Below are positions 15,201 through 64,000 of a stretch of DNA of 64,000 bases, in pieces. This stretch comes from a virus (lineage: Duplodnaviria; Caudoviricetes): positions 65,515 to 129,514 of the IMG/VR virus record IMGVR_UViG_3300028591_003923; one strand, given 5' to 3'. The position numbers and the translations under genes were made by a program. Within the stretch, counting starts at the first letter, position 1. Each line of letters opens with the position of its first letter. The notes under the pieces were generated by a model. It saw only the letters and a program-made list of their open reading frames with translations, made no database searches and was not told the origin of the DNA.

Positions 15201-18200
15201 AAGGTTTTAGATCATATTAGTGGTTTTGGCTCTTCTATGGCATCTGCAGGAATGGGCTTACGTTCGTTTGGTAGTTTGTTACAACAATCTGCTAATCCTG
15301 CTATAGCTACTTTTGGAACTGCATTAACTACAGCTGGTAGTTTATTAAGCACTATAGGAATGGGAGTAACGGGTCTTACTTCTGCTTTTTCATCTGCTTC
15401 AGCGTCTATTTCTGCTGCTACGGGTTTAATAGGAGGAGCTGCGACAGCTTTAACCGCAGGATTATTTGCATTAGTGGGTGTAGTTGCTGCAGCAATTATT
15501 TTAGAAAATAAACGTAGAGCTGATATTAAAAAGCGTGCAGAAGAGATTACTACCAACTATAAAGATAAAACTAAGGAGACTTCTTCTAATATAAGTGATT
15601 TACAAACTTGGCAAGATGAAATGCCACGACTTGCTAAAGGTGTTGATAAAAACGGTAATAATATTAATTTAGATGCTTCTGATTATCAACATTATTTAGA
15701 AATAGTAGATCGTATAGCAGAATTAAATCCTGAAATAGTTAAAGGATATAATGCACAAGGACATGCAATTGTTGATAATAACACTGCTTTACAGAAAACC
15801 CTAGATTTACAAAAAGATAATCAAAGATTAGCTGTTGAAGAATATACTAGTGATGATTCAATTAAAGCTTTAATAGAAGCTAGAGATTTAAATAAAACTC
15901 TTGGTGGATATACTGGTGGTAAACGAACAGTTGGTGGTAAATATACAAAAATAAATTATCAAGATAGTATGCTTGCTCCTCAAAAAACAATGATGGAACA
16001 GGCAAAGAAAATGGTTCAATCTTTAACTAAAGCGGGATTATCAAATGAAGATTTTAAAGATTTTGGTATAGATTTATCTGCTTTAGAACAAGGTAATCAA
16101 GCTGCAATTAGTGCTTTATCAAATAATATTGATAAGATTAAAATTCGTGCTAAAGCTAAAATGCAGGAATTTGGTGATGAGGTTTCTGATAGTACAAAAG
16201 AAGCTTTTGATAAGAGTGTAAGTGGTTTTACAAATGCTGCTAGTGACCTTGATGAAATGATTACACCACTTTATGATGCTTTATCAGCTAAAATGTCTAA
16301 TTCTAATGCATTTCAAAATATTCCTGATGATATGGTTACTTATTTTAATCAGGGATTAAAAAATATTGCTGCAGATAGCAAGTTAAGTTTTGATGAAATG
16401 ATGAGCGAATCTCGCGCTTTATCTAATGAATTTGTAAATTTAACTGCTAAAGGTACTGACTATGATAAAGCGATGGATAAAATCGCTAAAGCACAAGAAA
16501 AATTTGGTGAAAATTTAGATACTGCAGCATATGATAAGGCAGCAGATGATGTAGTTAAAGATTTAAATAAAATTAAAGATGGTGTTGATTCTACTTCAAC
16601 TTATGGTCAAGCTTTAACAGAATTTTTAGATAATCAAATTGCTCAAGTTCGTGATTTTACCAAAGATGGTGTAGCTAATGTTGCTGAAGCATTAAATACC
16701 ATGACGGATAGAATTTCTGCTGCGGAAGGTGCTTTAGAATCATTTAAAAAAGTAGAAGAAGGAAGTAATTTTTCTACTGCTGCAGATAATTTAAAGGAAA
16801 TTTATGATACTGTAACAGAAAAAGGAAGCAATGGCGAAGCTAATAAGCATGCTGCGGGGTTAGGAGATCAATCTTATTGGGCTGCCGCTGAAGCTATTTT
16901 TGGTAGAGATAACTTAAAAAGTAAAGATAAGGCTGCAGTAGATAAAATGTTTTCTGGCATCAGTAAAATGATGCAAGAAGGCGAGACAGGGGCATTAGCT
17001 TTTCGTGATAAATGGGTTTCTGCACGAAAAGAATTAGAAAAAATTAATGGGTTAACTTTGCATGAAAGTGGCTGGTTAAAAGAAATAGATGAAGATGTTA
17101 ATCCGGAAGCTTTTAAAGAAATAGCTGATACTTTAGGTATGTCTGAAGATACATTAACAGCTATGTTAAATAAGGCTCGTCAATTTGTTAATTTGGATTT
17201 TAGTGATTTAGCAGATGTACGAAAGGGATTAGCAACTAGTGAATCTACTATTACTGGGATAGAGCCAAAGAATGGTAAAGGTAAACGAAGTTTATATATA
17301 AAAGAAGAAGCCTTATACGCAGAGTTTGCTAATGCTGGTATTACTAATATAAATGAGCAAGAAAAATATAGAAAACGATTAGAAAGCGAGCAAAATGTAA
17401 AAACCATTACAGAAGCTGCTAAAATAGGGATTGAAGAATTTAAAGATATGGGTATTCATTCTCAAGAATCTTTAATTTCTATTTTAAATGATACGGGTCA
17501 ATTTACAAAAGATGAAATACAAGAATATGCGGAAAGTTATTCAAAAGCTAAGTTTAATAAAGAAGAATTTGATAAACAATTTGCAGCAGATGAAGCTTTA
17601 AAAGACCCGGTTGCGGGCGCGCAATTAGAATCATTAAAGAGTTTGGATGCGGCAGTAGCTACTATTGTTGATATTTTAGGCAATCAAAGAATAGCAGAAG
17701 GACATTTAGATAATCCAAGAGCTGAAAAAGCTGAGAAAATGCTTTTCGGTGAAAACGGTAATGATACTGAGGCGCAACGTTTTTGGCAAGGGAAAAATGC
17801 TGAAGGTGGCCTTATTTCAAGAAATGATTATATAGCAACTGGTAAAAGTTTAGATTCTTTTATAGCTGAAACGAATGAATATCTTCAAGAATTAGAAGAA
17901 GGTAGGAAAAACGCAAAAACAGGAAAAGAAAGAGATAAATTCCGTGATGAAATAGAGCGTTTTGAATATATGCTTGAAAGAGCAAAAGTATATCGTGATG
18001 AAGCAGAAGGTAACTATCATAAAACTAATGACAAAAAAATAGCAAAAGTTAATGAAGAAACAAATGGTTTCTTAGATGGTAAAACTTGGGAAGATTTTAA
18101 AGGTAAAAAGGGAAATATATTAGATACTTTATATCAAGCTTCTCAAGAACCAATTTCTGCTGTAACCGACAGTTTGATTACTGAATTGCATAATGCGGGT

Positions 18201-21200
18201 TTACACTTAAAAGATGCTTATGAAGCTGGTTTAATTACAGATGAAGCTTATAAAGCTTATACACAAAAAGCCAAAAAAGATAGACAAAAGAGAAATGATG
18301 CTGAACAACAAGGTAAAGACGAAGCTGATGAAGAAACTAATAAAAAAGAACAAGAAAAGCGACAAAAAGAAGCTGCAGAAAAAGCAAGAATAGCTGCAGA
18401 ACAACGAGAACGTGAAAATGCTGCTAAGAATGAAAGTACAGAAACAGAAAAACAAATTCAAGAAGACTTTAAAAAGCAACAGCAAGAAGAAGCTGCAAAG
18501 AAAGCGAGAGTTGCCGCTGAACAGAGGGCAAGGGAAAATGCCGCAAAATTTACCAACACAGAAGAACAAGGTGCATTTGATCAATATACTCCAGAAGAAG
18601 CACAAAAAGCAGGTCAAAATTTAAAGAATTGGTGGAATAATCTTTTTAAATCATTTAAAATGGACACTAGTGAAAATGCTCTTGGTTTTAGTTCAGAAGA
18701 TATTGACACTAGTGGTTTAGATAGTGCTGCAGAAGGTGCGAAAGATGTGGCTGATGGCGCGAAGGCAGCGTCAGATGAATTAGAAAAGAATAAAAATTCA
18801 ATTACTAATGTTGCTTCAGCTGTAACTAGTGGATTAAATTATGCTAACAAGGGGGTTAAAACTTTTGTTCAAAATGCAAAAGAAGCTTCTAGTTCTAGTT
18901 TGCAAGGAAAGCCTAAAGAAAAGGGTACTACTATTCCTGGTGTTGGATACGTTGATAAAAGTGGTAAAATAATAACTGGTAATGGTTCTAAAAAAGAAGA
19001 ACCTAAAAAAGCTATACCTGAAAATCAAACTGTTACTTTAAAAATTGATGCAGACTATACTCAAGTTACCGCTGCTAAGAAAGAAATTAATTCTACTATT
19101 AAATTAGCAAATAAAGGTGCAGAGTTAAAAGTTACTAGTACTAATGATGTTGAATCTACTCAAAAGAAAATGAGTCAGGTTCAAAAACAAGCATCTAAAG
19201 GAGTTAAAGGTGGAAAAGTTAGTTTTTCTACTAGTGCTGATACTTCTGGAGCATACAAAGGTATAGACAGTATTGTTAATAAAGCTAATAAAACTACTGC
19301 AAAAGTAAAAGTTACTTCTGTAAAAGCAGACGGTGCTTATGATGCAATTAACGCTTTAAAGTCTTATGCTGAAAAATCTGTTTCTTTTGGTGTAAATGTT
19401 AAACCTGGGCAAAAACGTAGTTTTAGTGTCTCTGTTAAAGCAGATTATCTTGGTCAAAATAATACCGGTGCTATACCTTCACTATCAAATTTAGGTTCTG
19501 CTGCAACAGGTACTTCTAAACCAGGTACTGGTCGTTTAGGTCCTAAAGGTAGAGGTGGATTAACTCTTACTGGAGAACTTGGGTATGAAGTAGCTTGGTT
19601 ACCTCGTCAGCATCGTTCAATGATTCTTGGTGTAAATGGACCAGAAATGGTTAATTTACCAGGAGATGCAGTTGTTTGGAATCATGAACAGTCAAAACAA
19701 ATTGTTAAAAAGAATCAAATTCCAAGTGGTTCGGCTGCGATTGGTGCTGGTTCGATGGATGCTACTTCCGAAGACTGGCCTGATAGTTTGGGTGAAGAGA
19801 AGAAAAAAGGTTCTAAAAAGAAAGGAAAGAATTCTAACAGTGATAAAGAAAATAAAAAGAATTCTAAGAAAACTGGTAAAGCAGTTGACCAATGGATAAA
19901 ATGGGCCGGAAAGATTGGTAAAATTACTAACTGGTGGGAAAATATAAGTCGTAAAGTCGAAGGCGCGCAGCGTATAGTAGATAAGAATCAAAAAGATTTT
20001 GAAAAAGTTCTCAAAGCCGTTGGAACCACTTTATCTTCAATTCAAGGCTCAATTGATAAATATCAAAAGAGCTTAGAGACTTCTATTAAAGTTAACCAAG
20101 AGATTTATGATCATTATACTACGCGGTTAGAAAACTTTGATAAGAACGGCGGTAGCAGAACTAAAATTAATAAATATAATACTACTTCTGAAAAAGCTTC
20201 GCAATTAAAAGCGAGTATTGATGCAGCAGGTTCAAAAGGAAAAGTTAAATATGGCGGTAAGAAAATTTCTGTTAAATCCGCTAGAAAAAAATTAAAACAG
20301 CTTAATAATACTGCGAAAAAGCAAAAGAAAAATGCGGTAGCACCAGAAGGAGTTGCAACAGTTACTTGGGATGATACGGCAATTGTTAAAAAAGGCAGTA
20401 AAAAGAAAAAGCAAAAGGTAAAACGTAAAGCTGCTATTGACTTTTCTGAAATCGTTTATTTTGACCCTGAAACCGGAGCTTATATTGCAGATACAGATAA
20501 GATTAATAATGCTGCAAAAATTAAGAAAGGTAAGAATAAAGGAAAAGTTAATAAAAAAGAAGCTCAAGCTATTCAAAAGAAAGCTAATGAATATATTGAT
20601 ACTGCTACTCAGCGTCGTAATACTGCGGAAGATAAAATTAATGCCGCGCGAGAAGCATTAAATAAGTTAGCGGATGATACATATAATATGTTTAATCGTT
20701 GGGAAAAGAGCCTGACTGAAACATATTTAATATCTAAAAAACTTGAAGCTTTACAGAAAAAGAGCGACATTTATGACGCACAAAAAGAATATATTACTGC
20801 TAGAACATCTGCAGGATATCATACCGAAGAATCATTTGACCAATTACAAAAAGTTTTAATTGATAAACAAAATAATTTAGTTGAACAACTTCATGCTAAT
20901 GTTGATAATATTGAAGCTTCATTTTCAGCATATCAGAAATCACTTAACTTCCAAGAATATTATGATAATTTCTTAATTCCTAATTTAAAAGGAATTAATG
21001 GTGAAAGTGAAACTGCTAATAATGATATAAAAGCAGCAAAAATAGTATTCGATTTAATGAAAGAATATGGATTGAATTCTGTTGATACATTTGACCCAGG
21101 TAAAATTAAAGAGATATATAAACAATATGCAGAGAATGAATATAATAATGAAACTGATACAGCAGTTCAAAAAGTAATTGACCGTATTGCTGAAAATCAG

Positions 21201-22850
21201 GGAAATTACTTGGATGCAATACAAGAATCTTATGGAACATTAACTGAAGTTTATAATACTTTAAATGAATATGAAGAATATATTAATGATTTTGAAGAAT
21301 CTTTATTAAAAGGTTTTGAAGAAGAAATTAATAAGGAAATTGATAAGCAAGAAAAACTTAATTCTGCATTGACCGACGCCTTTAAGGATTTAATAGACGA
21401 GGTTAAACGTAGGCTTGACCAGCGTCGAGAAGTAGAAGATAATGCGAAAACAGAATCTGATATTAGTAAAAAACAACAACGTTTAGCCGTTTTACGTGCG
21501 GATACTTCAGGTGGTCATGCAAGTGAAATTAGGCAATTAGAACAAGAAATTGCAGACGCACAACAACAATACGGACGCACTTTAGAAGACCAATTACTTA
21601 ATAGATTACAAGAACAAGGCGATGAAGCTGCTAAGCAACGTGAACGTCAGATTAAACTTCTTGAAATCCAACGTGATTTAGCACAAGCATTAGGTACTAA
21701 TTTAGAAGAAGTTAAACGATTATTAGAAAATCCTGAAGAGAACTATGAACAGATTAGACAACTGTGGTTAACTAATCAAGGTTATGATGAAGCGCTACCA
21801 GAGAAACAAGAACAGTTGGAAAAAGATTGGCTTAATGCTTGGGATGAATATCGTGCTTCTGGAATAGCTTCAGAAGAGTTGCGAAAAGTATTAGGAAGCA
21901 ATGAACTTAATTTGCCAGCAGATTATCAAACAGCAGTTCAAGATGGCATAAAAAATATTTATGAGTTATTAGATGCTTATATTAATAAAGGAGTACCAGA
22001 AGCTGAAGTCAAAACCGATTCTGATTTTAATTTAAGTACAGCTAAGGAAAAGGGAATAAATGCTGCGAAAGCTTATGAATTGGCTCGTCAAAAAGATAAG
22101 AATATTACTTATGAAGATATTAAAAATGCGGGATATAATGCAGAAGATTTCAAAACAGCAGGAATTAGTGCACAAAATGTTTTTGATGCTGGAACCGAAT
22201 ATAATACTGCCAAAGATTTATACACAACTAAAGAATTAAAAGAAGCAGGTTATACTAAAGCACAAGAATTATTAGATGCAATTACTCAAATTAAAACCGC
22301 GGCAAAGAATCGTGTTACATATTGGAATAACTATCAAAAAAATGTAGACTTATTAAAGAAAAATGGGTTATCTAAAACTCAAAAGAAAACTTATAAAGCA
22401 CGTAGAGATAATTGGAAAGCTAAATATGAGGCAATTAATGATGAGATTGATAATCTAAAAGAAATAATTAATAGTCATAATGTAGTTGGAAAGCGTGTTA
22501 AAGAAGTTAAAAATGGTACAGTTACTTTTTATAAAACTGGTGGTCTTGCCACGGAAACAGGCCCAGCTTGGCTTGATGGTACTCGCGCAAAGCCTGAACT
22601 TGTACTTAATGCAACAGATACAAAGAACTTCATTGCATTAAAAGATGTACTTTCAAGTGTAATGAATGGAGTAAACAGTATGACCGATGTGTCTGACATA
22701 CAGGGCGCGCCGGTGACATACGATATCAACATTAACGTAGACCATTTAAATAACGATTATGATGTTGATAGAGTTGCTGATAGAGTTAAAAAGATTATTG
22801 TTCAAGACGCAAGCTACAGAAATGTAACTGCTGTTAGAAAATTTAGATAA
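12246..22850 (+). CDS. Tape measure protein (3534 aa)
   Basis: TP901-type core (ELDAAMTETAVV...FRDLDQVFLDI...AGSRQQSRF), hydrophobic Ala/Gly segments, long coiled coils, C-terminal GGL...GPAWLDG...PELVL motif. Confidence 0.9.
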   Translation: MADNVVDILLRARMEAGDVASGVNSIQKALNGLTLPKNVSGDLEKQFAKIGPLLKDYQKQLDKGFKTSKDLKNLELLKSKITDTFGEIKDRLQDVNGQEIRFKADTQEIAKLEKELDGLQTKLKDKIGGIYKSNQTDQSIKTNINNLQKALSVQFKSGNFKFPALKELTSGLRQALNTKDFVTFNSQIDNIRDKINSLSASSKINIADSLGLKYAANDANAAGREINKFLTSIQVNKTAANSIETLRTKITETGNTLQQLKFDSATRGAEALGNTSSGIDQLMNSLSGAGQSAEQAANGMLSMQQQVDQLKTSTQYFFSLRNMINLLKQGVSQAVDTIKELDAAMTETAVVVPEWDVGDMWAKLPEYTQNANKLGATVVDLYKATTLYYQQGLRGNEVMDIAAETMKMARIGGLEAADATDKMTAALRGFNMEINQESAQRINDVYSNLAANTASNTEELGTAMQRTASIAASAGMSFEGTAAFLAQAIETTREPAENLGTAMKTIVARFTELKKNPLEISEVDGEEVSYNKVDTALQSIGVSLKDTNGQFRDLDQVFLDISQRWDSLTQTQQRYIATQAAGSRQQSRFIAMMSNYQRTTELMDFANNSEGASQEQFEKTMESLEAKMNKLKNAWDAFLMGITDNQIVKGAVDGLTALVGGVNKLIDALSLGVGPLKSFMSLMAAFTGLKMGGRFVNSMIGGLGGLVDPASSFGAGFKSGMVGRGNPALASQIYNPIVAAIHELGAAMGRTFGNGSGANSLFNKTADQIRYDAYKAAHQEFKNIAFNRGEYENKNATVNDLTKALSKLDTKDQNFLGKAFFNTTNAARQAIFGGWNKKAYSFHGHGEGERAFGRISMPMLNKADKAIYADVKNNSLPLSEYFKRIQDPGVIRQALDNAKADTNSPIYKFVSNLDKGITERVTQAASSVEEKIKNSNLSDEKKQAALDKFKSGDFNQKARDAEIARMQAKGILPNGEETFKNSGVGKVLDHISGFGSSMASAGMGLRSFGSLLQQSANPAIATFGTALTTAGSLLSTIGMGVTGLTSAFSSASASISAATGLIGGAATALTAGLFALVGVVAAAIILENKRRADIKKRAEEITTNYKDKTKETSSNISDLQTWQDEMPRLAKGVDKNGNNINLDASDYQHYLEIVDRIAELNPEIVKGYNAQGHAIVDNNTALQKTLDLQKDNQRLAVEEYTSDDSIKALIEARDLNKTLGGYTGGKRTVGGKYTKINYQDSMLAPQKTMMEQAKKMVQSLTKAGLSNEDFKDFGIDLSALEQGNQAAISALSNNIDKIKIRAKAKMQEFGDEVSDSTKEAFDKSVSGFTNAASDLDEMITPLYDALSAKMSNSNAFQNIPDDMVTYFNQGLKNIAADSKLSFDEMMSESRALSNEFVNLTAKGTDYDKAMDKIAKAQEKFGENLDTAAYDKAADDVVKDLNKIKDGVDSTSTYGQALTEFLDNQIAQVRDFTKDGVANVAEALNTMTDRISAAEGALESFKKVEEGSNFSTAADNLKEIYDTVTEKGSNGEANKHAAGLGDQSYWAAAEAIFGRDNLKSKDKAAVDKMFSGISKMMQEGETGALAFRDKWVSARKELEKINGLTLHESGWLKEIDEDVNPEAFKEIADTLGMSEDTLTAMLNKARQFVNLDFSDLADVRKGLATSESTITGIEPKNGKGKRSLYIKEEALYAEFANAGITNINEQEKYRKRLESEQNVKTITEAAKIGIEEFKDMGIHSQESLISILNDTGQFTKDEIQEYAESYSKAKFNKEEFDKQFAADEALKDPVAGAQLESLKSLDAAVATIVDILGNQRIAEGHLDNPRAEKAEKMLFGENGNDTEAQRFWQGKNAEGGLISRNDYIATGKSLDSFIAETNEYLQELEEGRKNAKTGKERDKFRDEIERFEYMLERAKVYRDEAEGNYHKTNDKKIAKVNEETNGFLDGKTWEDFKGKKGNILDTLYQASQEPISAVTDSLITELHNAGLHLKDAYEAGLITDEAYKAYTQKAKKDRQKRNDAEQQGKDEADEETNKKEQEKRQKEAAEKARIAAEQRERENAAKNESTETEKQIQEDFKKQQQEEAAKKARVAAEQRARENAAKFTNTEEQGAFDQYTPEEAQKAGQNLKNWWNNLFKSFKMDTSENALGFSSEDIDTSGLDSAAEGAKDVADGAKAASDELEKNKNSITNVASAVTSGLNYANKGVKTFVQNAKEASSSSLQGKPKEKGTTIPGVGYVDKSGKIITGNGSKKEEPKKAIPENQTVTLKIDADYTQVTAAKKEINSTIKLANKGAELKVTSTNDVESTQKKMSQVQKQASKGVKGGKVSFSTSADTSGAYKGIDSIVNKANKTTAKVKVTSVKADGAYDAINALKSYAEKSVSFGVNVKPGQKRSFSVSVKADYLGQNNTGAIPSLSNLGSAATGTSKPGTGRLGPKGRGGLTLTGELGYEVAWLPRQHRSMILGVNGPEMVNLPGDAVVWNHEQSKQIVKKNQIPSGSAAIGAGSMDATSEDWPDSLGEEKKKGSKKKGKNSNSDKENKKNSKKTGKAVDQWIKWAGKIGKITNWWENISRKVEGAQRIVDKNQKDFEKVLKAVGTTLSSIQGSIDKYQKSLETSIKVNQEIYDHYTTRLENFDKNGGSRTKINKYNTTSEKASQLKASIDAAGSKGKVKYGGKKISVKSARKKLKQLNNTAKKQKKNAVAPEGVATVTWDDTAIVKKGSKKKKQKVKRKAAIDFSEIVYFDPETGAYIADTDKINNAAKIKKGKNKGKVNKKEAQAIQKKANEYIDTATQRRNTAEDKINAAREALNKLADDTYNMFNRWEKSLTETYLISKKLEALQKKSDIYDAQKEYITARTSAGYHTEESFDQLQKVLIDKQNNLVEQLHANVDNIEASFSAYQKSLNFQEYYDNFLIPNLKGINGESETANNDIKAAKIVFDLMKEYGLNSVDTFDPGKIKEIYKQYAENEYNNETDTAVQKVIDRIAENQGNYLDAIQESYGTLTEVYNTLNEYEEYINDFEESLLKGFEEEINKEIDKQEKLNSALTDAFKDLIDEVKRRLDQRREVEDNAKTESDISKKQQRLAVLRADTSGGHASEIRQLEQEIADAQQQYGRTLEDQLLNRLQEQGDEAAKQRERQIKLLEIQRDLAQALGTNLEEVKRLLENPEENYEQIRQLWLTNQGYDEALPEKQEQLEKDWLNAWDEYRASGIASEELRKVLGSNELNLPADYQTAVQDGIKNIYELLDAYINKGVPEAEVKTDSDFNLSTAKEKGINAAKAYELARQKDKNITYEDIKNAGYNAEDFKTAGISAQNVFDAGTEYNTAKDLYTTKELKEAGYTKAQELLDAITQIKTAAKNRVTYWNNYQKNVDLLKKNGLSKTQKKTYKARRDNWKAKYEAINDEIDNLKEIINSHNVVGKRVKEVKNGTVTFYKTGGLATETGPAWLDGTRAKPELVLNATDTKNFIALKDVLSSVMNGVNSMTDVSDIQGAPVTYDININVDHLNNDYDVDRVADRVKKIIVQDASYRNVTAVRKFR
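18365..18547 (+). repeat. Imperfect 120-nt (40-aa) period repeat within tape measure
   Basis: KEAAEKARIAAEQRERENAAK and EEAAKKARVAAEQRARENAAK. Confidence 0.7.
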
Positions 22851-55393: not shown

Positions 55394-55738
55394 ATGACAA
55401 ATTTATTATCCCCGACGGGAGGCTTGGTGACTATTCTTTTAGCTATATTTGCTTCCTCGGGTTTATGGTCTTTTTTACTTTACGTGGCACAGCGTAGAGA
55501 TCAAAAACAAGACGCTAGAACAAAAGCGCTATTAGTGCTATTACATGATGCTGTGTACCACAATTGTGAACGTGCCATTCATAGAGGGTATACAACTCTT
55601 ATAGAATTTGATAATATAACAGAACTATATAATGCTTATCATGCATTAGGTGGAAATGGTACTGGTACAGAACTTTACAATAAAGTTCGTGCTTTACCTA
55701 TTCACAATGGAATAAAGGAGGAGCAAGATGATAATTAG
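55394..55738 (+). CDS. Holin-like membrane protein
   Basis: Single N-terminal TM helix; C-terminal Y.AY..LGGNG pattern common in Firmicute phage holin-like proteins. Confidence 0.55.
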   Translation: MTNLLSPTGGLVTILLAIFASSGLWSFLLYVAQRRDQKQDARTKALLVLLHDAVYHNCERAIHRGYTTLIEFDNITELYNAYHALGGNGTGTELYNKVRALPIHNGIKEEQDDN

Positions 55739-56150
55739 AGGAACTACACCATATCATAGTTTTGTCTTGCCACTCAAAGCAGAGGAAGTTGAACAGCTTT
55801 GGATTACGTATATGCAGAATAACAAAGTTATTTTACATAAAACAAAAGACGATGTAACAATCACTAATGTTGAAGATTTAATTGATGAATCACTTGAGAA
55901 TGCTTCGGTTGAAGATTTAACCGAGGAAGAGTTAAATGGTTCACAGGTTGTACTTCATTTAACTCAAGAAGATACACTTGCTTTTACATTTTGGCCTGCT
56001 GCAGAAAAGAATATAATAGTAATACAAGTGCGTCTACTTACAACCGATGGTGAAGCATATGCGTCCGACCCAACTACTGAACGACTTATGGGAGTACTAA
56101 AAGATGGAGTAATTGGAGGGACAGAAGATGAGAACGAGATTGAAGAATAA
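55728..56150 (+). CDS. Tail/fibre-associated protein (MIIRGTTP type)
   Basis: RGTTP...F.LP, LTQEDTL.F, IQVR motifs; first gene of the fibre cluster. Confidence 0.5.
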   Translation: MIIRGTTPYHSFVLPLKAEEVEQLWITYMQNNKVILHKTKDDVTITNVEDLIDESLENASVEDLTEEELNGSQVVLHLTQEDTLAFTFWPAAEKNIIVIQVRLLTTDGEAYASDPTTERLMGVLKDGVIGGTEDENEIEE

Positions 56151-56337
56151 CGGAAATGCAGACAAGTCAATCAATGTTAAGTTCTCAACGCAAAATCGAC
56201 GCTTTGATAAATTAAATTTTACAAAAACAAGCTCTGATTTAGACATTTCAACACATGTGCGCCCCTCTGAAGAAGACATTTACTACGATGAAATAGTTTA
56301 TTACGATGGCGGAGGCGTAGAGGGATATGGCGATTAA
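56128..56337 (+). CDS. Small fibre-cluster protein ending in YDGGG
   Basis: GGAGG RBS before ATG 56128; overlaps both neighbours. Confidence 0.55.
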   Translation: MRTRLKNNGNADKSINVKFSTQNRRFDKLNFTKTSSDLDISTHVRPSEEDIYYDEIVYYDGGGVEGYGD

Positions 56338-56662
56338 AAGAAGACATATGAAAGCTGTCATACAGCTACGGCGCGCGGTTGAGAATGACTGGATTAGGCT
56401 TAACCCTGTGCTGCGCGTTGGCGAACCGGCGCTGAGTACAGATGTATATAAGCTTAAAGTGGGCGATGGCCAGACCCACTGGAGTGATTTAGATTATCTA
56501 AGCGATATAGATGCGTTAAACTATATGCAGCTTAATGATTTACCTTCAATTAATGAAGTTACATTGATTGGAGATAAGAACAGTACAGATTTGGGATTGC
56601 AAGAAGAGATGGACGCCCTTCTTGAATCTGATATTGATAGAATTATTTTTGGAGGAGTTTAA
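56327..56662 (+). CDS. Mtd-N/hyaluronidase N-terminal-like fibre protein
   Basis: IQLRR....W...NPVL..GEP......KVGDG..W..L.Y; LPSIN.VTL.G. Confidence 0.75.
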   Translation: MAIKRRHMKAVIQLRRAVENDWIRLNPVLRVGEPALSTDVYKLKVGDGQTHWSDLDYLSDIDALNYMQLNDLPSINEVTLIGDKNSTDLGLQEEMDALLESDIDRIIFGGV

Positions 56663-56664
56663 GA

Positions 56665-57444
56665 ATGGCGGATAACAAGTATTTAAATGACGTCGGTTTA
56701 AGATACTACCATGAAAGACTAAAAACTCTTTTCGCGCAAAAGCAAGCGTTAGAGGATTTGGAAGACAGAGTTGATGGTATTGTATCTGAAGGTGGCGAGC
56801 CAAACACAATTGATAGTATTAGCGTCAATGGAACTGCAGTCGCGCCAGATGCGAACAAAAATGTCGCACTGACAGTACCTACAGCTACATCAGATTTAAC
56901 AAACGATGGCGACGGTACAAGTAATTTCGCAACTGAAGCTTACGTAACTCAGAACGGCGGTAAAATTGATACAATTAGCGTAAATAACACGCAACAGACA
57001 ATTACAAATAAGAATGTAAATATTACAGTGCCAACGGCGTTGAGTGATTTAACGAATGATGGGAATTATGTAACAGATGCATCATATGTTCATACAGACA
57101 CGAACTATGTTGCTGCGGACAAGGCGAAAGTAGATAAGCTTGCATTTAATGGAAATGTGCTTGATAGTTCTGTGCTTCCTTCGTTTGTGGATGATGTTGT
57201 AGAAGTATACCCAGTTGGAGTAACAGAGCTTGCATCTGATTGGTTTGCACTTACTGCGGGCGGAGCACCAATTACTCCAGAAGCGGGAAAAATTTATGTA
57301 TTAATGGCAGACTCTACAAATTATTCTGCAAATTCACAATTTAGATATGGCGGAAGTACATACGTTAAACTCTCTGATGGTGGAGTAAGTTCAATTACAA
57401 CAGCAGAAATTGATGCGATTGTTACACCAACACAAGGAAATTAA
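56665..57444 (+). CDS. Fibre protein with duplicated ISVN...NKNV..TVPT..SDLTNDG repeat
   Basis: Internal duplication; LPSFVDDVVE and E.GKIYV fibre motifs. Confidence 0.7.
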   Translation: MADNKYLNDVGLRYYHERLKTLFAQKQALEDLEDRVDGIVSEGGEPNTIDSISVNGTAVAPDANKNVALTVPTATSDLTNDGDGTSNFATEAYVTQNGGKIDTISVNNTQQTITNKNVNITVPTALSDLTNDGNYVTDASYVHTDTNYVAADKAKVDKLAFNGNVLDSSVLPSFVDDVVEVYPVGVTELASDWFALTAGGAPITPEAGKIYVLMADSTNYSANSQFRYGGSTYVKLSDGGVSSITTAEIDAIVTPTQGN

Positions 57445-57455
57445 AGGAGTAAATA

Positions 57456-57950
57456 ATGGCAATAGAGTATTTGGATAAAGAAGGGCTTGAATATTACCAT
57501 GGCAAGCTTGAAAATGAATTTGCCCAAAGCTCGCATACTCATCCGGTTGATTCGGAGTTATCTGATACTTCTGCCAACCCATTAGAGAATAGGGCAATTC
57601 ATAGAGCGATTGCACAGGCTGTAGAGTCTATGCAATTGCATAGGCCTGAAGTGTATTTTAATACGACAGCTGGCTGGGCCGCGCAAAGCGGTTTGGTTGG
57701 TCAGGCAAACACTATTTATATATATACAGATTATCAAGAAGATGAGGATGGAAATCCTATTGCGGGTTTAAAAATAGGCGATGGAAATGCCTATTTAATT
57801 GATGCCCCTTTTCTTGATACACTTTATTTAGAACATATTAATGATACAGATATACACGTGACACCAGCTGAAAAGGAGTTTTGGAATAATAAAGTTAGAT
57901 GTTTTTATTCTTTAACTGATAATGATACGGTGGTGTTTACTACACAATAA
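57456..57950 (+). CDS. Fibre protein
   Basis: HTH motif, VD..LS.TS.NP.EN, KIGDG, H.ND..IHVT..EK..WN motifs. Confidence 0.65.
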   Translation: MAIEYLDKEGLEYYHGKLENEFAQSSHTHPVDSELSDTSANPLENRAIHRAIAQAVESMQLHRPEVYFNTTAGWAAQSGLVGQANTIYIYTDYQEDEDGNPIAGLKIGDGNAYLIDAPFLDTLYLEHINDTDIHVTPAEKEFWNNKVRCFYSLTDNDTVVFTTQ

Positions 57951-57961
57951 GGAGAGATGAA

Positions 57962-59182
57962 ATGGCAGATATTAGTAAAATAACCTTGCCTTCTGGTAGT
58001 ACGTATAATATAAAAGATGAAGTAGCTCGTGGAATAATAGCGGGACTAACTTTTATAATAGCTTGGGATGGTACGGGAACACCTACTGCCGCGAATATAC
58101 CTAAGGGAGTTGTTGCAGGTGGTGTTACAGGTACTTTAGAAGCTGCCAGTGAGGTTGTTAATCCAAGGGCTTTCTATTTGGTGAAATCAGCTACCACACC
58201 TTCTAGTGAAACTTTAGATAAATATGATGAGTATGCGGTTGTAAAACCTGATACAGAAGATAATACTACTTGGTATTGGGAGAAATTTGGCGATACAAAA
58301 ATTAATTTAGCTGACGTAGTTACTGGTGTGACTTTAAACAAGTCTACGGATACAGTAATTGGTACAGATTCTACTTTTACAATTACACAACCAACTGTTG
58401 CTTTAGCAACTGGAGCTACTGCAGGAGATGGAGTTATTTCTGTTGCTACTGGTGCGAGTGGAACAACCAAGTATATAGGAGGAACCGCATCTGGTGGCGG
58501 CGCGGCTTGGAATTCAAAAGATACAAAGACAGTAGTAACAGGTTATGCAGCACCGACTAGTGATACGTTTGTAAAGACGATTTCACCAACTACTTCTAAA
58601 TTAACTACGACTAGTGTAACGGGAGTACAGAGTAGTACGACTACTGCTTCAAAAGCTACGGCTGCAACTAGTCAGACCACAGTAAGTGGATTGGCTGCGT
58701 CTACAAGTAATGCTGATTTGCTTGCGAATTGTAGTGTTAGTGATGAAACTTTAGTAATTGGTGCTAAAAAGCTTAGTACGCAAACTACGACTCAATTTAC
58801 TTTTGCGGATGTAACTGTTCCAATTAAAAATACAAGTGCTACGACTGTTGCTACTGGAGCAGCGGCTACAAATAGTACTGGTGCTTCAATTGTTACGGCT
58901 GTCGCGGCTGGTACAACAGCAGATGCGCTTACTGGACTTGGAACTGCATCTACTGCAAGTGTAATTGGTAATAGTGCTACTCTTACTAATACCCAACCGA
59001 CAATTTCTATGGCTCTTGCGGATGCATCTGCTACTGGAAAGGTTGGAGTTATTACTGGAGTAAGTGCTTCAACTACAAATGTTAAAGCTACTGCTAGTGG
59101 TGCGAATACAGCTTGGAATTCTAAGGATTCGGTTACTGTACTTACAAGTGGAAGTTCACTTACGGTTACCAAAGGTCAGTAA
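57962..59182 (+). CDS. Thr/Ala/Ser-rich fibre protein
   Basis: YDEY...WEK.G motif; duplicated TQPT...G...TG and AWNSKD..V.T segments. Confidence 0.65.
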   Translation: MADISKITLPSGSTYNIKDEVARGIIAGLTFIIAWDGTGTPTAANIPKGVVAGGVTGTLEAASEVVNPRAFYLVKSATTPSSETLDKYDEYAVVKPDTEDNTTWYWEKFGDTKINLADVVTGVTLNKSTDTVIGTDSTFTITQPTVALATGATAGDGVISVATGASGTTKYIGGTASGGGAAWNSKDTKTVVTGYAAPTSDTFVKTISPTTSKLTTTSVTGVQSSTTTASKATAATSQTTVSGLAASTSNADLLANCSVSDETLVIGAKKLSTQTTTQFTFADVTVPIKNTSATTVATGAAATNSTGASIVTAVAAGTTADALTGLGTASTASVIGNSATLTNTQPTISMALADASATGKVGVITGVSASTTNVKATASGANTAWNSKDSVTVLTSGSSLTVTKGQ

Positions 59183-59195
59183 GGGGGTGATTTAA

Positions 59196-59627
59196 ATGGC
59201 AGATATTAGTGCTATTAAATTACCTAATAATGAGACATATAATTTAAAAGATAAGAATGCTTTACCATTAACTGGAGGACAAGTTACTGGACCGGTGACT
59301 TTTGGTGATTCGGTTTCTGTGGATGATTTGACCGTTGGGAATATGGTTGTGAATGGAAGCGCAAGTTTTACGAATGGAATTGTGAATTTTAAATCTATAT
59401 CGGTTTCACTTCCAGTTGCTTCTTGGTCTTCAAATTCGCAGACAGTTACGGTTTCGGGAGTTACTGCAACAAATACTGTTGTAGTTTCTCCCGCGCCCGA
59501 CTCTTTTGGAGATTATAGTACTAGTGTGGTGCACTGTACTGCGCAAGGAAATAATTCATTAACTTTTACTTGCAGTGAGACACCCGCGGGCGCTCTGACG
59601 GTTAATGTATTGATAATGAATATTTAA
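59196..59627 (+). CDS. Fibre protein
   Basis: LPLTGG.VTG motif; W....QTVTVSGVTA...V.CTAQ...LTF.C...P domain. Confidence 0.65.
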   Translation: MADISAIKLPNNETYNLKDKNALPLTGGQVTGPVTFGDSVSVDDLTVGNMVVNGSASFTNGIVNFKSISVSLPVASWSSNSQTVTVSGVTATNTVVVSPAPDSFGDYSTSVVHCTAQGNNSLTFTCSETPAGALTVNVLIMNI

Positions 59628-59641
59628 GGGGGTGAGAAGGA

Positions 59642-60529
59642 ATGATATTTAACATGGTCGGCGGTGCCGGTTCTGGAGAATCACTTCTCATCTCTGATAC
59701 TACAGATGCGAATGGCGGAACTATTCGTACTATTACTGGAAAAGTTGTAAAATTACAGACTAAGACTATTACTCCTACGAGTTCTGTTCAGAATGTAGTA
59801 CCTGATACGGGGTATGATGGATTTAGTCAAGTCACGGTTAATGCGTCGAGTGGGTCGGCGATTAACAATCAGAATAAAACTGTTTCTCCTACTACTTCAC
59901 AACAAACAATTACGGCAGATTCGGGATATACGGGATTAGGTACGGTCACGGTTAATGCAATGCCGACTATGACTTTACCCACTTCCGCCGCGACAAGTGC
60001 AACAAGTGGTTATACGAACAAAGCGACAATTAGTCGTTCAACTTCTACACAATACATAAATATACCGCCTGGTTATAATAGCGCGGGTGCATATTACACA
60101 ATTAGTGCTACTCCAAATGGGAGCGTGACTGCGCCAAGTTCAATTTCTGGGACATCAGCAACCGTATCTACTGGAACGAATACATTAACTTTAACTAAAA
60201 CAGTTAGCGTAACTCCTTCTGTTACTACTGCGGGTTATATAAGTAGTGGAACAGCGGGTAATTCTTCGGTTAGCTTAACCGCTTCGGTTACGACTAAGGC
60301 GGCCGCAACAATTACTCCGGGAACTACGAATCAAACAATTGCGGCTGGTACATATTTAACTGGCGCGCAGACAATTGCGGGAGATGAGGACTTAGTTGCT
60401 TCAAATATTGTTAGTGGCGTACAAATTTTCGGAGTTACTGGTAATGTAGTGTTGCAGAAATACTATACAGGAAGTTCTGCTCCTGCTTCTTCTTTGGGAA
60501 GTAATGGAGATATATATATACAACAGTAA
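59642..60529 (+). CDS. Thr/Ser-rich fibre protein
   Basis: Repeats Q.KT.TPT...Q....D.GY.G...VTVN; NI.SGV.IFGVTG; C-terminal YTGSSAP...G.NGDIY. Confidence 0.65.
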   Translation: MIFNMVGGAGSGESLLISDTTDANGGTIRTITGKVVKLQTKTITPTSSVQNVVPDTGYDGFSQVTVNASSGSAINNQNKTVSPTTSQQTITADSGYTGLGTVTVNAMPTMTLPTSAATSATSGYTNKATISRSTSTQYINIPPGYNSAGAYYTISATPNGSVTAPSSISGTSATVSTGTNTLTLTKTVSVTPSVTTAGYISSGTAGNSSVSLTASVTTKAAATITPGTTNQTIAAGTYLTGAQTIAGDEDLVASNIVSGVQIFGVTGNVVLQKYYTGSSAPASSLGSNGDIYIQQ

Positions 60530-60541
60530 GGGGGTGGATGA

Positions 60542-62935
60542 ATGTCGAGAGTTATTAATATTTCAGATACATTAACCACCCATCCTAATGGTTATAGTTC
60601 AGGTAATTCATCTTATTCGAGTATAAGTAGTTCGTACCCAATTTCAAATGGTTATACGGATGCATCGTCCACGTCTTATGCTTATATTACATGTAATACT
60701 GGTTCGCGTGCAGAATCGCATATTTCATATACTTTCGATGTATCTGAGATTCCAGAAGGTGCGACAATTGATTCAGTTACTTGTTCAGTTAAATCAAGAG
60801 TTAGTTCTACAAATTATTTAACTGCTTCAACAATTCAGCTATATAGTGGCTCTACCGCAAAAGGTGCAGCTACTTCCGCTGCATCAACATCAGCGACCGC
60901 GCGCAGTATAAGTAATACAGGTTCATGGACTTATGAAGAAGTACAAGAAATACAGGTACGATTAACTGGTACAAGAGGTACATCGAGTACTACTCGTGCA
61001 GCCTACCTTTATTTCTATGGAGCAACTTTGAATATAACCTATTCAATCCATGGAACAGCTTATACAATTGGCGCAACTAGTAATGTAACTGGAACAACAG
61101 TTGAACCTTCTACACAAGAAGTAATGGAAGGCGAAAGTGCTACTGTTACTATTTACTCTAATTTAATTGATGGACTTACAATTACTGATAATGATGTTAA
61201 TATTAGTGGTGATTTAATTGAACACGAAGCTCAGACCGGTGGAACAATAGAAAAATATCCAGAATCTGCAACTACAACTAGTATACAAAGTGGTACTTCT
61301 TATGCACAATATGCAGTTGGTCATTCTGCGGAAAGTCCATATTCTTCAACAAATAATATGTATGCTTCTCAAAGTACAATAGGTCATGCTGCATATACAT
61401 TTGATTTTAGCGATATTCCTTCAAATGCTACGATTACTAATGTGACTGTTAAATGTAATGGACATAGAGAAAACTCTACTGTAAGTTCTACTTATGTAGC
61501 AAGAGTTGAGTTATATAGCGGTTCGACTCAAAAAGGTTCGACTTATGAACTTACTAGCACATCTAACTATACTTTTGAAGTACCGGATGTAGGTACTTGG
61601 ACTCGCGCGGAGTTACAAGAAGCAGAATTATGGTTTCTTGTTGGTTATTATGGTGGCTTACTTTGCGGTGCTACATGGGAAGTTACTTATACAGTCCCTT
61701 CAAGTGGAAGCGACTACTATTGGACTTACACAATTGATAATGTAAATGCAGACCATGTAATTTTAATTACAGAAGAAGGTCCATTTATTCCACCAGAGGA
61801 AGACCCGCAATATAATTATTATCCAATTACGGTTTCTTCTATTAATGCGACAACTGACCCATTCCATGGGACAGAACGTGTGCAAGAAGGAACTACACAG
61901 ACAATTACAATTACTCCTACCGACCCGCAATTAACACTTGCACTGGATAATGGAGTTGATATAACGAATCAATTAGTAGGTAGTGTTCCTACGAATACGT
62001 ATACAATTGACACGCAAGTAACTGGTGCATCATATGGATTTAATTTAAATAGTTCGAGTGGATATTATGTATCTACGAATAATGGAGTTAGTAAATCCGC
62101 ATCGGTTGCACGCATTAATATGAACTTTGAAAGTAGTTGTTTAGTTACTATTCAATATATTAACTATGCGGAAGAAGATTATGATTATGGAATGTTTGGA
62201 AGTTTAGATACTGCGGTTGCTACAGATGGATTGACTGCTGCAAGTGGTGGTTCTACTCCATCAGATTCGACTTCTAATTATAAAATTTCAAGATGTTCTA
62301 ATAGTACTTCTGCGCAAACGGTTACTTATGAAGTGCCTGCGGGTGAACACTTTATTGATGTTAAATACGGTAAAGATGATGCTTCTGATTCTGGTAATGA
62401 TAGTTTACAATGGAAAATTACAAGTGTTGAAGCTACAAGCGCGGGCGGCGAGTATACATATACGTTGACTAATATAAATCAAAAACATAGTTTAATTTTT
62501 ATTTTTGGTGATGTTAGTTACTTTTTTATAACTTCAAGTGGTAATAGTTGTAAATTATATCCTGATGGTCAAATGGTTAAGTTGGAAGGTGATTCGTATC
62601 AGATACGTATTGTACCGAACGACCCAAATGCAACTGTTACCTTAAAAGATAATAATGTTGATAGGACTTCTTTACTTGAATATGAGAGTACGACAGATAA
62701 ATATGGTAATACAGTAGTTAACTATACATATAGTTTGACAAATATAACTGCTGCGCATAACTTGGTAATTAGTTGTTCAAGTGGTAGTGGTGCGAATATT
62801 TATTTGAAATTAAATGGAACATGGACACAATGTTCTAAAGTTTATTTAAAAGTTAATGGTTCTTGGGTTGAACAAAATCAATCTACTTGGGGTGATTTGT
62901 TTGATACAAGAGCAAACTATAGAAAAATGAATTAA
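60542..62935 (+). CDS. Large adhesin/receptor-binding-like protein with duplicated beta-sandwich and Ig-like modules
   Basis: Two YTFD.S.IP..ATI..VT...LYSGST.KG...G.WT..E.QE domains; three DN.V...YT..N....H modules; C-terminal YLK.NG.W twice. Confidence 0.65.
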   Translation: MSRVINISDTLTTHPNGYSSGNSSYSSISSSYPISNGYTDASSTSYAYITCNTGSRAESHISYTFDVSEIPEGATIDSVTCSVKSRVSSTNYLTASTIQLYSGSTAKGAATSAASTSATARSISNTGSWTYEEVQEIQVRLTGTRGTSSTTRAAYLYFYGATLNITYSIHGTAYTIGATSNVTGTTVEPSTQEVMEGESATVTIYSNLIDGLTITDNDVNISGDLIEHEAQTGGTIEKYPESATTTSIQSGTSYAQYAVGHSAESPYSSTNNMYASQSTIGHAAYTFDFSDIPSNATITNVTVKCNGHRENSTVSSTYVARVELYSGSTQKGSTYELTSTSNYTFEVPDVGTWTRAELQEAELWFLVGYYGGLLCGATWEVTYTVPSSGSDYYWTYTIDNVNADHVILITEEGPFIPPEEDPQYNYYPITVSSINATTDPFHGTERVQEGTTQTITITPTDPQLTLALDNGVDITNQLVGSVPTNTYTIDTQVTGASYGFNLNSSSGYYVSTNNGVSKSASVARINMNFESSCLVTIQYINYAEEDYDYGMFGSLDTAVATDGLTAASGGSTPSDSTSNYKISRCSNSTSAQTVTYEVPAGEHFIDVKYGKDDASDSGNDSLQWKITSVEATSAGGEYTYTLTNINQKHSLIFIFGDVSYFFITSSGNSCKLYPDGQMVKLEGDSYQIRIVPNDPNATVTLKDNNVDRTSLLEYESTTDKYGNTVVNYTYSLTNITAAHNLVISCSSGSGANIYLKLNGTWTQCSKVYLKVNGSWVEQNQSTWGDLFDTRANYRKMN

Positions 62936-62946
62936 GGAGGTGACAT

Positions 62947-64000
62947 ATGGCTTATAGTAAAATAATTTTAAATGGAGAGACGTTAATGGATGTCACCTCC
63001 GATACTGTAGCAGCAGGGTCACTTTTATCAGGTGAAACAGCGACTAAAAATGATGGAACTAAAGTAACGGGAAATATAGCGACAAAGAGCGCGGCAGATT
63101 TAACTGCAAGTGGTTCTACAGTTACTGCGGCGGCAGGCTATTATTCAAGTTCAGTAAGTAAAAACGTTGAAGCAGGAACAGCTACTACGCCCGCTAAAAC
63201 AATTACAACTAATCCGACAATGACACTTACTGATGCTGTTGGTGTGGTTGCGGCGACATATCACGGGTCTAGTTCAATTACACCGACGGTAAGTGCTGGT
63301 TATATAGCAGCAGGAACTGCGGGGACGGTATTTACAACAGGTACGTCTACGTATCAATTAACGTCTCAGGAGTCTCAGGTCTTTTATCCGTCTACAGCTG
63401 ATCAGACGATTGCTTCATATAGATGGTTAACAGGGGCACAAACATTTAAATCAGTTACTACGTCTAATCTTACAGCTGCTAATATTGCAAGTGGAGTAAC
63501 TGTTAAAGTTGGAGATGCTTATAAGGCGAATAGAATCATGCAGATAACAGGTACGTACGCCCCAGAAACTTCGAGTCTAACTGTAACACCGACAGAAACT
63601 CAACAAACATTTAATGCTACCGGTGTTTATGGATACAAACCAGTAACGGTTCGTCCAATCCCATCAACTTATATTCAACCTACTGGTACAAGTACAATTA
63701 CAAGTAATGGAACGTATAACGTGGCGGCTTATGCTAGTGCAAATGTAAATGTAGAAGGGGGTGGAAGCGGCGGAGATGGCGGTTTTACAGCAGACCAAAT
63801 AGCTTTGCGAACTATATCTGGGAGTATTAGCGGAAATGCTAGTTTTATTGGCAATTATGCGTTTAATAATTGTAGCGCCCTTACTACTGTAAGTTTCCCT
63901 TCATGTACGTCAATTGGCTATGGTGCATTTCAGACTTGCCAGTCCCTTACTACCGTAAGTTTCCCTGTATGTACGTTAATTGGCAGTTATGCGTTTAATA
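62947..64000 (+). CDS. Fibre protein with BspA-type leucine-rich repeats (3'-truncated, not in ORF track)
   Basis: AAGGAGGTG RBS, ATG 62947, frame open to the window end: MAYSKIILNGETLMDVT... then IGNYAFNNCSALTTVSFPSCTSIGYGAFQTCQSLTTVSFPVCTLIGSYAFN. Confidence 0.8.
   Translation, partial: MAYSKIILNGETLMDVTSDTVAAGSLLSGETATKNDGTKVTGNIATKSAADLTASGSTVTAAAGYYSSSVSKNVEAGTATTPAKTITTNPTMTLTDAVGVVAATYHGSSSITPTVSAGYIAAGTAGTVFTTGTSTYQLTSQESQVFYPSTADQTIASYRWLTGAQTFKSVTTSNLTAANIASGVTVKVGDAYKANRIMQITGTYAPETSSLTVTPTETQQTFNATGVYGYKPVTVRPIPSTYIQPTGTSTITSNGTYNVAAYASANVNVEGGGSGGDGGFTADQIALRTISGSISGNASFIGNYAFNNCSALTTVSFPSCTSIGYGAFQTCQSLTTVSFPVCTLIGSYAFN
63847..64000 (+). repeat. 66-nt tandem repeats encoding 22-aa LRR units
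   Basis: CCCTTACTACYGTAAGTTTCCCT..ATGTACGT.AATTGGC recurs at a 66-nt period. Confidence 0.75.

Follow-up and report, generated by a model that had tools for sequence, protein, structure and literature searches.

Matched terminal peptides at gene junctions of a tail-fibre operon in an uncultured phage as candidate docking modules of multi-protein fibres

Short peptides at the ends of consecutive proteins encoded in an operon of an uncultured phage are likely to be docking modules of multi-protein fibres, the pieces of which would be joined non-covalently in gene order. The operon lies at positions 55394-64000 of the 64,000-nucleotide stretch analysed here (the window), which is the last 64 kb of the 129,514-bp IMG/VR record IMGVR_UViG_3300028591_003923, and comprises eleven open reading frames (ORFs), all in the same direction and separated by few bases. 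An earlier reading of the window from its sequence alone (the sequence-only reading) had noticed that successive products reuse terminal motifs in matched order. When the translations and coordinates were re-read, all of the listed motifs were present where they had been reported, and a six-frame scan of the whole 129.5-kb genome found them in the right terminal positions at these genes alone. Hundreds of unrelated phages have such matched terminal peptides at their gene junctions. That the peptides would serve for docking has strong comparative support: they are strictly terminal, they adjoin one another repeatedly although the domains flanking them are unrelated, their sub-types co-vary, sockets occur on tail proteins, both motifs of joint A (described below) are absent from covalently fused relatives, and connectors have been swapped around ORF6.

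In the proposed scheme the operon would encode pieces of tail fibres, the end of one product docking the start, or a complementary half-domain, of the next; we call the C-terminal member of such a pair the socket and the N-terminal member the plug. Pfam matches above cut-off were obtained for Mtd_N in ORF4 and LRR_5 in ORF11 alone, and comparison of the DNA of the region with 50,697 GenBank phages found nothing similar. The eleven ORFs are as follows (aa, amino acids; Ig, immunoglobulin).

ORF1, 55394..55738, + strand: 114 aa, N-terminal membrane helix, phrog_4105 (E 1e-24); context only.
ORF2, 55728..56150, + strand: 140 aa, 'RGTTP' protein, Ig-like beta-sandwich, phrog_15594.
ORF3, 56113..56337, + strand: 74 aa, C-end ...YYDGGGVEGYGD (56296-56334), the putative 'D' socket, found ahead of Mtd_N proteins.
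ORF4, 56327..56662, + strand: 111 aa, Mtd_N (56357-56476), NKP-like strand segment, putative helix socket A (56531-56659, ...ESDIDRIIFGGV).
ORF5, 56665..57444, + strand: 259 aa, shaft, with putative plug A (56665-56733), coiled coil, repeats and putative socket A (57385-57441).
ORF6, 57456..57950, + strand: 164 aa, candidate adaptor between joint types, with plug A (57456-57524), Mtd_N-like domain (57642-57800) and socket B1 (57879-57947).
ORF7, 57962..59182, + strand: 406 aa, plug B of ITLPSG type (57962-58021), Thr/Ala-rich shaft, socket B2 ...SLTVTKGQ (59126-59179).
ORF8, 59196..59627, + strand: 143 aa, plug B of IKLPN type (59196-59255), LPLTGGxVTGP motif, small Ig-like end.
ORF9, 59642..60529, + strand: 295 aa, fibre with ~35-aa KTVTP...GY.G...VTVNA repeats, ending ...SSAPASSLGSNGDIYIQQ (60461-60526), the 'A-end' half of the putative split joint C.
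ORF10, 60542..62935, + strand: 797 aa, putative adhesin, the 'B' half of the putative split joint C being two clear YLK(L/V)NG(T/S)W hairpins towards its C-end (62792-62869).
ORF11, 62947..64000, + strand: BspA-type leucine-rich-repeat adhesin, LRR_5 (PF13306; E 2.5e-10, 40.8 bits against a cut-off of 27.7).

Joint A is used twice in the window, from ORF4 to ORF5 and from ORF5 to ORF6: ORF4 (56327-56662) ends ...LLESDIDRIIFGGV, ORF5 (56665-57444) starts MADNKYLNDVGLRYYHERL and ends ...ITTAEIDAIVTPTQGN, and ORF6 (57456-57950) starts MAIEYLDKEGLEYYHGKL. A C-terminal strand and 8-residue helix, [ST]xx[DE]I[DE]xI, would dock an N-terminal KYL strand and the 14-residue amphipathic helix GLxYYHxRLK of the next protein. 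The shaft ORF5, built of ~35-aa repeats (GGKID/TVPT/SDLTNDG), has 1752 detectable homologues, and in nearly all of the 120 listed there is a plug, KY[LI]NxxGLxY, near residue 4 and a socket, [AI][IM]TxAEI[DN]xI, about 11 residues before the end. Across 52 viral loci retrieved with ORF5 as seed, the gene following a socket-ending one started with the plug 35 times, where 3 such cases were expected. Because that sample is biased by its seed, a second scan of IMG/VR was seeded on the plug peptide alone, using a narrower alignment since the broad one was too diverse for the purpose, which gave 79 new loci and 89 cases. The plug KYLDxxGLxY lay 1-5 residues from the start codon in all 89, and the gene upstream ended with the socket [ST]xx[DE]I[DE]xxL in 83 of them (odds ratio 94, Fisher p = 6e-64, relative to the other ORFs of the same loci). 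The adjacency of the C-terminal and N-terminal motifs in other phages, which the sequence-only reading had put forward as a check, is thus borne out.

The gaps between these genes are tiny (-21 to +31 nucleotides in the plug-seeded sample, some of them overlaps) and the ORF calling was crude, which lends a little weight to a nucleotide-level or annotation artefact, such as translational coupling, recent gene splitting or mis-called ORFs. We consider such an artefact highly improbable. All synonymous codons are used at the conserved plug residues across 76 distinct DNA versions, which indicates that the peptide rather than the DNA is under selection; neither the frame nor the length of the gap is constant; downstream genes keep their own Met, after which the plug begins within the same 1-5 residues; and the split between genes is conserved in the listed ORF5 homologues and in the 6255 clusters of the hairpin module of joint C, described below.

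Socket A also occurs on proteins of the tail itself. A ~45-aa module, consisting of an NKP-like strand segment, LGL and the helix, is equivalent to phrog_24985, a 70-aa family of unknown function that ORF4 matches over residues 59-92 (E 3.5e-5). The same module stands at the C-terminus of Sipho_Gp37, Prophage_tail (Tal), a major tail protein, a collagen-like fibre and an Mtd_N protein, and a plug-bearing gene comes next in each of the Sipho_Gp37, Tal, major tail and collagen-like carriers. On the simplest reading, socket A on these tail components would be a docking site for fibres. Many phage fibres require chaperones, and some shed C-terminal chaperone domains; with this precedent, and the motifs being short and terminal, one might take the peptides for tags used in chaperone-assisted assembly, export or processing and absent from the mature joint. 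This seems to us improbable, as a tag would have no need to sit on the gene immediately upstream of the plug gene in 83 of 89 cases, to co-vary with the plug or to be fused to Tal or to a major tail protein; besides, neither Pfam nor PHROGs detected a chaperone-like or peptidase S74-like domain in the operon.

Natural fusions of socket and plug, which the sequence-only reading had suggested looking for, did not turn up: no true internal socket-then-plug pair was found among 120 longer ORF5 homologues, the single match to the regular expression appearing spurious. The protein P0129, considered as a possible fusion, was rejected, for it keeps its own Met after an over-extended upstream frame. 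Neither joint A motif is present in the single-chain relatives P0196, which joins Mtd_N to repeats, and P0137, which joins NKP to repeats, and the socket helix follows the NKP segment in 0 of 4 proteins with an internal NKP and in 27 of 32 with a C-terminal one. The joint A motifs occur exactly where the chain is broken.

Both members of joint A fall into sub-types that vary together. Sockets with Asp at +5 pair with a non-GLL plug in 99 of 109 cases, and those with Glu at +5 with a GLL or W7 plug in 62 of 64. The commonest three-gene chain, seen 26 times, runs adaptor(E), shaft(plug L, socket D), tip(plug x), with two sub-type pairs in order; the D/x, D/x pattern of the window was counted in 12 cases. 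Mutual information amounts to 0.58 bit across the junction versus 0.28 bit within one protein. This co-variation fits a cognate recognition that would order the pieces, the shared ancestry of the loci being uncontrolled in these counts. Alternatively, the N-terminal peptides could bind a common baseplate hub and the C-terminal peptides could be trimerisation caps or folding nuclei of their own proteins, so that their meeting at gene junctions would merely be inherited synteny. Shaft proteins do bear a plug as well as a socket, with types partly linked within the protein (the 0.28 bit), both A joints of the window are of one sub-type (D/x), and many of the loci come from similar rumen and gut samples. 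We nevertheless regard inherited synteny as an unlikely explanation, given that conservation is limited to ~45 and ~25 residues at the junction, with unrelated domains on either side (Tal, Gp37-like, major tail, collagen and Mtd_N upstream; varied tips downstream), that the association across the junction exceeds the one within proteins, that the 26 three-gene cassettes hold two distinct sub-type pairs in fixed order, and that covalently fused relatives drop both motifs together.

Joint B would bring a beta-strand C-end together with the N-terminal hairpin MADISxIxLPxGxxYxIKD, in two ordered sub-types. As the sequence-only reading had it, the ORFs starting at 57962 and 59196 (ORF7 and ORF8) both begin MADIS.I.LP...TYN.KD. 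The seed M[APS][DN][IL]SxI[KTQ]LP retrieved 92 unique plug proteins from IMG/VR, and one of three types of C-end precedes the plug in about 88% of them, including ~8 regular-expression misses added by eye: ...WNNK...(D/E)ETL(I/V)F(T/N)xx in 40 cases, ...TFTGTxATITVS in 24 and ...VSVTKGN in 9 (odds ratio 50, p = 2e-54). The WNNK type (socket B1) leads to an ITLPSG plug in 30 of 40 cases, and the other two (B2) to an IKLP plug in 26 of 33 and to ITLPSG in 0 of 33. The window obeys this rule at both junctions, ORF6, with its socket B1 C-end FWNNK...TVVFTTQ, preceding the ITLPSG plug of ORF7, and the ...LTVTKGQ end of ORF7 preceding the IKLPN plug of ORF8. The Ig-like end of ORF8 matches Big_3 weakly, and this protein is probably the last piece of its chain. 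We also observed that the MADIS-type fibre genes of six rumen phage loci (L236, L237, L254, L273, L278 and L298; ~3001-3060) carry in-frame stops at Gln or variable positions of their relatives (KDA*AR versus KDAQAR), suggestive of stop-codon recoding.

ORF6, which bears plug A and socket B1, illustrates how connectors may be exchanged. Over residues 63-147 it shares 38% identity (E 2e-18) with a 126-aa protein of another locus, L131. That protein has MSAxMNTRIKLKRDT as its N-terminal connector in place of plug A, and the protein before it is an Mtd_N protein ending ...LIFDCGTSTTNI. In the window, plug A is on the corresponding module and socket A on the homologue of the Mtd_N protein (48% identical in the first 60 residues), the shaft ORF5 being inserted between the two. 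By sequence comparison, the pair is a natural exchange of what would be joints around a conserved module.

The pair of motifs at the ORF9-ORF10 junction, joint C, appears to behave as a domain split over two genes. ORF9 (59642) has the C-end ...YYTGSSAPASSLGSNGDIYIQQ, finishing in GSNGDIYIQQ, and the ORF10 hairpins YLKLNGTW...YLKVNGSW lie 22-44 residues from the end of that protein. The sequence-only reading had taken these two halves to be contiguous in single-chain fibre proteins; a search for a single-chain unit of GDIW/GDIY and NGxW in about 430 fetched loci found none, and the halves meet across gene boundaries instead. The proposal that the termini are docking modules acting in gene order, with exchangeable segments, has gained strong comparative support; the single-chain unit was not found. 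With GG[SNA][DSN]GD[IV]W as seed for the A-end, we obtained 50 unique sites, 48 of them with a next ORF. The GDIW/GDIY motif lies 3-5 residues from the stop in all 50, and the next ORF has the B hairpins in 33 of 48 by regular expression (30 N-terminal, 3 C-terminal) or in 36 with three N-terminal regular-expression misses added. A hairpin-seeded scan yielded 48 unique proteins, with an A-end gene directly upstream in 25.

The hairpins of the partner proteins have the consensus YVKVxGTWK and stand in tandem, usually exactly three at the N-terminus, with 59 unique N-terminal triple-hairpin modules. A profile of this B module matched 6255 cluster representatives among 1.84 billion, and of the 150 best matches about 140 begin at residue 1 or 2. 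The triple-hairpin module forms the N-ends of phrog_25859, phrog_21772 and phrog_36019, and the proteins that carry it bear PASTA, ConA-like lectin or glycine-rich domains; the A-end is the C-end of phrog_14064, annotated 'tail fiber protein'. ORF9, presumably a trimer, would contribute C-terminal ...GDIY strands, and ORF10, presumably a monomer, its tandem YxKxNGxW hairpins. Given exactly three hairpins in most other phages, joint C may be a trimer-to-monomer adaptor, three hairpins per chain and a presumably trimeric fibre suggesting 3:1 complementation. ORF10, in which two internal sequence repeats were judged by eye in the translation, is counted with the B module, which has two or three tandem YxKxxGxW hairpins at a terminus and a preceding gene with a GD(I/V)(W/Y) C-end; as it has no PHROG match, it is placed there by motif, no profile score being available. 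The order of an A-end gene and then a protein with C-terminal hairpins is also found in the unrelated siphophage loci L123, L299, L302 and L305. Separately, about ten A-end fibres (...GDIWIKY) precede a large protein that starts with MxxFYxDYEGGNDxNDGxSFANR in place of the hairpin module and may be an alternative type of partner (loci L301, L303, L316, L327, L329, L376, L379, L380, L383, L384, L397, L407, L409 and L423).

Upstream of the shaft, the ...YYDGGGV end of ORF3 would dock the Mtd_N start of ORF4 (joint D). The sequence-only reading had pointed to a YDGGG end directly before an Mtd_N start, and this was confirmed for ORF3 and ORF4 as well as elsewhere, ...YYDGGGV(D/E)GYG ends preceding small proteins with an Mtd_N start in 18 of 20 cases among the fetched loci. 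The first start codon of ORF3 is a TTG at 56113, and 56128 is the ATG of its fifth-residue Met. In ORF4, Mtd_N (PF18454) covers residues 12-50 (E 2.7e-9, 37.2 bits against a cut-off of 26.3), and phmmer matched the N-terminus to the N-terminal regions of the phage hyaluronidase HylP.

Further upstream, ORF2 is a probable anchor of the fibre on the tail or baseplate, an assignment in which our confidence is low. Its AlphaFold2 (AF2) model, with a predicted local distance difference test score (pLDDT) of 87.8, is an all-beta, Ig-like sandwich. In Foldseek searches it retrieved only generic Ig folds from PDB and, from BFVD, many ~110-aa uncharacterised phage proteins together with weak matches to BppU_N proteins (ranks 46 and 50, TM about 0.45-0.48); a Pfam match of ORF2 to BppU was sought and none was found. 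By regular expression, the adaptor has an RGTTP protein one or two genes upstream in 22 of 58 cases, and in many of the others a TRGDT-type protein of ~110 aa is there instead, as judged by eye. We infer that the assembly as a whole would be attached to the baseplate, with ORF2, Ig-like and possibly BppU_N-like, as its probable tail anchor.

The secondary structure of the joint A motifs was modelled on locus L063, in which adaptor and shaft share a frame, so that the stop could be read through and the adaptor plus the first 66 shaft residues predicted by AF2 from a partly paired alignment. Confidence is best at the junction (pLDDT 73-89, versus 33-50 in the first five 10-residue blocks), where a short strand, the socket helix (100-107), a loop, a short strand at KY, the plug helix (121-134) and the coiled coil follow one another. 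The top structural alignments of the model cover residues 97-136 at a root-mean-square deviation of 1.9-2.3 A, with Z no higher than 3.7 and none significant, and we read them as the socket and plug helices probably lying side by side; those with gp12 and gp34 fragments are weak and insignificant as well (Z 3.5 and 2.5).

Several points weigh against the docking interpretation. Motifs were scored with regular expressions on ORFs from a crude ORF caller. Being related by descent, the loci are not independent of one another, and part of the adjacency and co-variation could reflect co-inherited gene pairs. As the two A joints of the window share the D/x sub-type, the sub-type alone cannot fix the order ORF4-5-6, and ORF6 could dock directly on ORF4. 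ORF10 has two clear hairpins, C-terminal and not N-terminal, compared with the usual three at the N-terminus. The L063 model has an overall pLDDT of 61.5 and is a monomer of presumed trimers. A sequence search for a solved PDB structure of the ORF5 family, the A-end or the B module found none, and no cultured GenBank phage with the cassette was found, leaving no cultured model; ORF5, ORF6 and a downstream tip protein gave marginal cyanophage matches only. Finally, connectors were sought and not found at ORF2-3, ORF8-9 and ORF10-11. The sequence-only reading had placed about nine products in one fibre; joint evidence links ORF3-4-5-6-7-8 and ORF9-10, and with none at those three junctions a single chain of nine proteins is not supported.

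Two candidates examined along the way were rejected. The glycine-rich protein of L123 matches C. difficile phages in its N-terminal domain only, the hairpins being unmatched. ORF8, which over its first 62 residues shares 66% identity with the beginning of a 549-aa protein from L002, was considered together with ORF9 as a split of that protein; only the first 62 and last ~20 residues correspond, the middle is unrelated, and the comparison provides no evidence of an ORF8-ORF9 joint.

A wider claim would be that of a combinatorial connector code, in which at least four joint types with orthogonal sub-types, among them the 3:1 split beta domain joint with >6000 clusters, dictate how fibres are ordered and where they branch, and gene order allows them to be read. 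We hold this to be quite possible, if somewhat short of probable.

The operon closes with ORF11, whose LRR_5 match is above cut-off. ORF11 runs off the end of the contig, which falls inside the BspA-type leucine-rich repeats (window 63900-64000), and repeats and open frame carry on at the start of the genome for about 1200 bases (1-1204). Genome positions 37-136 repeat the final 99 bases of the contig. The genome is therefore either circularly permuted or was assembled with a break in a repeat, and ORF11 is cut by the contig end. Tail genes resume at the genome start with a Dit-like protein, followed by proteins of 2154, 886 and 1677 aa and then by lysis genes. The 886-aa and 1677-aa proteins (genome 10961-18666) both begin MA(T/Q)(T/V)SYG(S/T)ITI(V/T)D, which may be a further shared N-terminal connector. 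At window positions 12246-22850 lies a 3534-aa ORF whose size and position resemble those of a tape-measure gene; the fibre operon and ~32 kb of replication genes on the minus strand separate it from the Dit-like and 2154-aa Tal-like genes (genome 3472-20854), an unusual split of the tail module. Small proteins of the phrog_4105 type, like ORF1, which have a single membrane helix at the N-terminus and conserve a ...GGNG... segment, often lie just upstream of the RGTTP/adaptor/plug cassette, for example in L004 (6514-6819) and L013 (7107-7400). Relatives of ORF5 are found on contigs binned as Lachnospiraceae, Christensenella and Clostridia, as well as in Rickettsiales and Methanobrevibacter metagenome-assembled genomes (L054, L059), and the contigs of these last two appear to be of phage origin and wrongly binned.

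The majority of phages in gut, rumen and environment have not been cultured, and sequence does not allow their host-recognition apparatus to be read. If the terminal peptides do dock as proposed, fibre architecture (stacking, branching and tip) could be deduced from the order of the genes and 10-20 residues at the termini, and it would be explained how tips and extension pieces are exchanged while the remainder of the tail stays undisturbed. The joints would also provide a small orthogonal set of parts for studying fibre assembly in phages of Gram-positive bacteria, and the triple-hairpin joint would answer how a monomeric lectin-type or PASTA-type domain is mounted on a threefold fibre, a general solution for monomeric binding domains.

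Multi-protein fibres and N-terminal docking peptides are already established, in phages T4 and TP901-1 and in Klebsiella phages. In the lactococcal phages TP901-1 and Tuc2009, the baseplate upper protein BppU holds the receptor-binding trimers of BppL. As would be the case here, a structural protein grips with its C-terminal part the N-termini of the trimers that the next gene encodes, and an Ig-like domain of BppU_N type, which ORF2 matches weakly in BFVD, anchors the assembly to the tail. The two systems differ in that they share no sequence similarity, that the putative connector here is a short portable peptide pair on many unrelated carriers, and that it appears to be used serially, plug and socket being in one protein, with co-varying sub-types. 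The long tail fibre of T4 is composed of separate proteins, gp34, gp35, gp36 and gp37, joined end to end in gene order, and its monomeric gp35 between trimers parallels the proposed trimer-to-monomer joint C. No joint of the T4 fibre is known to be a portable pair of peptides, and Pfam and PHROGs searches for homology to gp34-37 gave no match and no shared motifs or domains. The two-protein chain-like fibre of Pseudomonas phage A1002 was set aside as another design, its dimers being threaded along a rope protein. Streptococcal phage HylP (PDB 2C3F, 2YVV) shares with ORF4 the N-terminal Mtd_N region and the NKP-like segment that follows; HylP runs on covalently into a coiled coil and beta-helix, whereas ORF4 stops after the socket helix and the shaft is a separate gene. 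KP32, K11 and KP34, which are podophages of Klebsiella, have anchor-branch receptor-binding proteins with a 'conserved docking peptide', and the two reports describe a short conserved N-terminal peptide by which the second receptor-binding protein docks the first in a modular, swappable manner (PMC6872550; PMC13352976). In that system the socket is an internal branching domain and not a C-terminal peptide, and there is a single branch and not a chain; the hosts are Gram-negative, and the plug sequences found here are unrelated. A branching domain like that of T4 gp10 was sought in all eleven ORFs with Pfam and PHROGs, and none was found. Within the literature, family libraries and structures searched, short portable pairs of C-terminal and N-terminal peptides, their serial use by proteins bearing both plug and socket, several orthogonal joint types and sub-types per operon, and the triple-hairpin joint are apparently undescribed. 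The docking domains of modular polyketide and non-ribosomal peptide synthases are short C-terminal and N-terminal peptides on consecutive gene products that set the order of assembly and fall into orthogonal classes; being parts of enzymes and not of virion fibres, with unrelated folds, they stand to the peptides described here as an analogy only.

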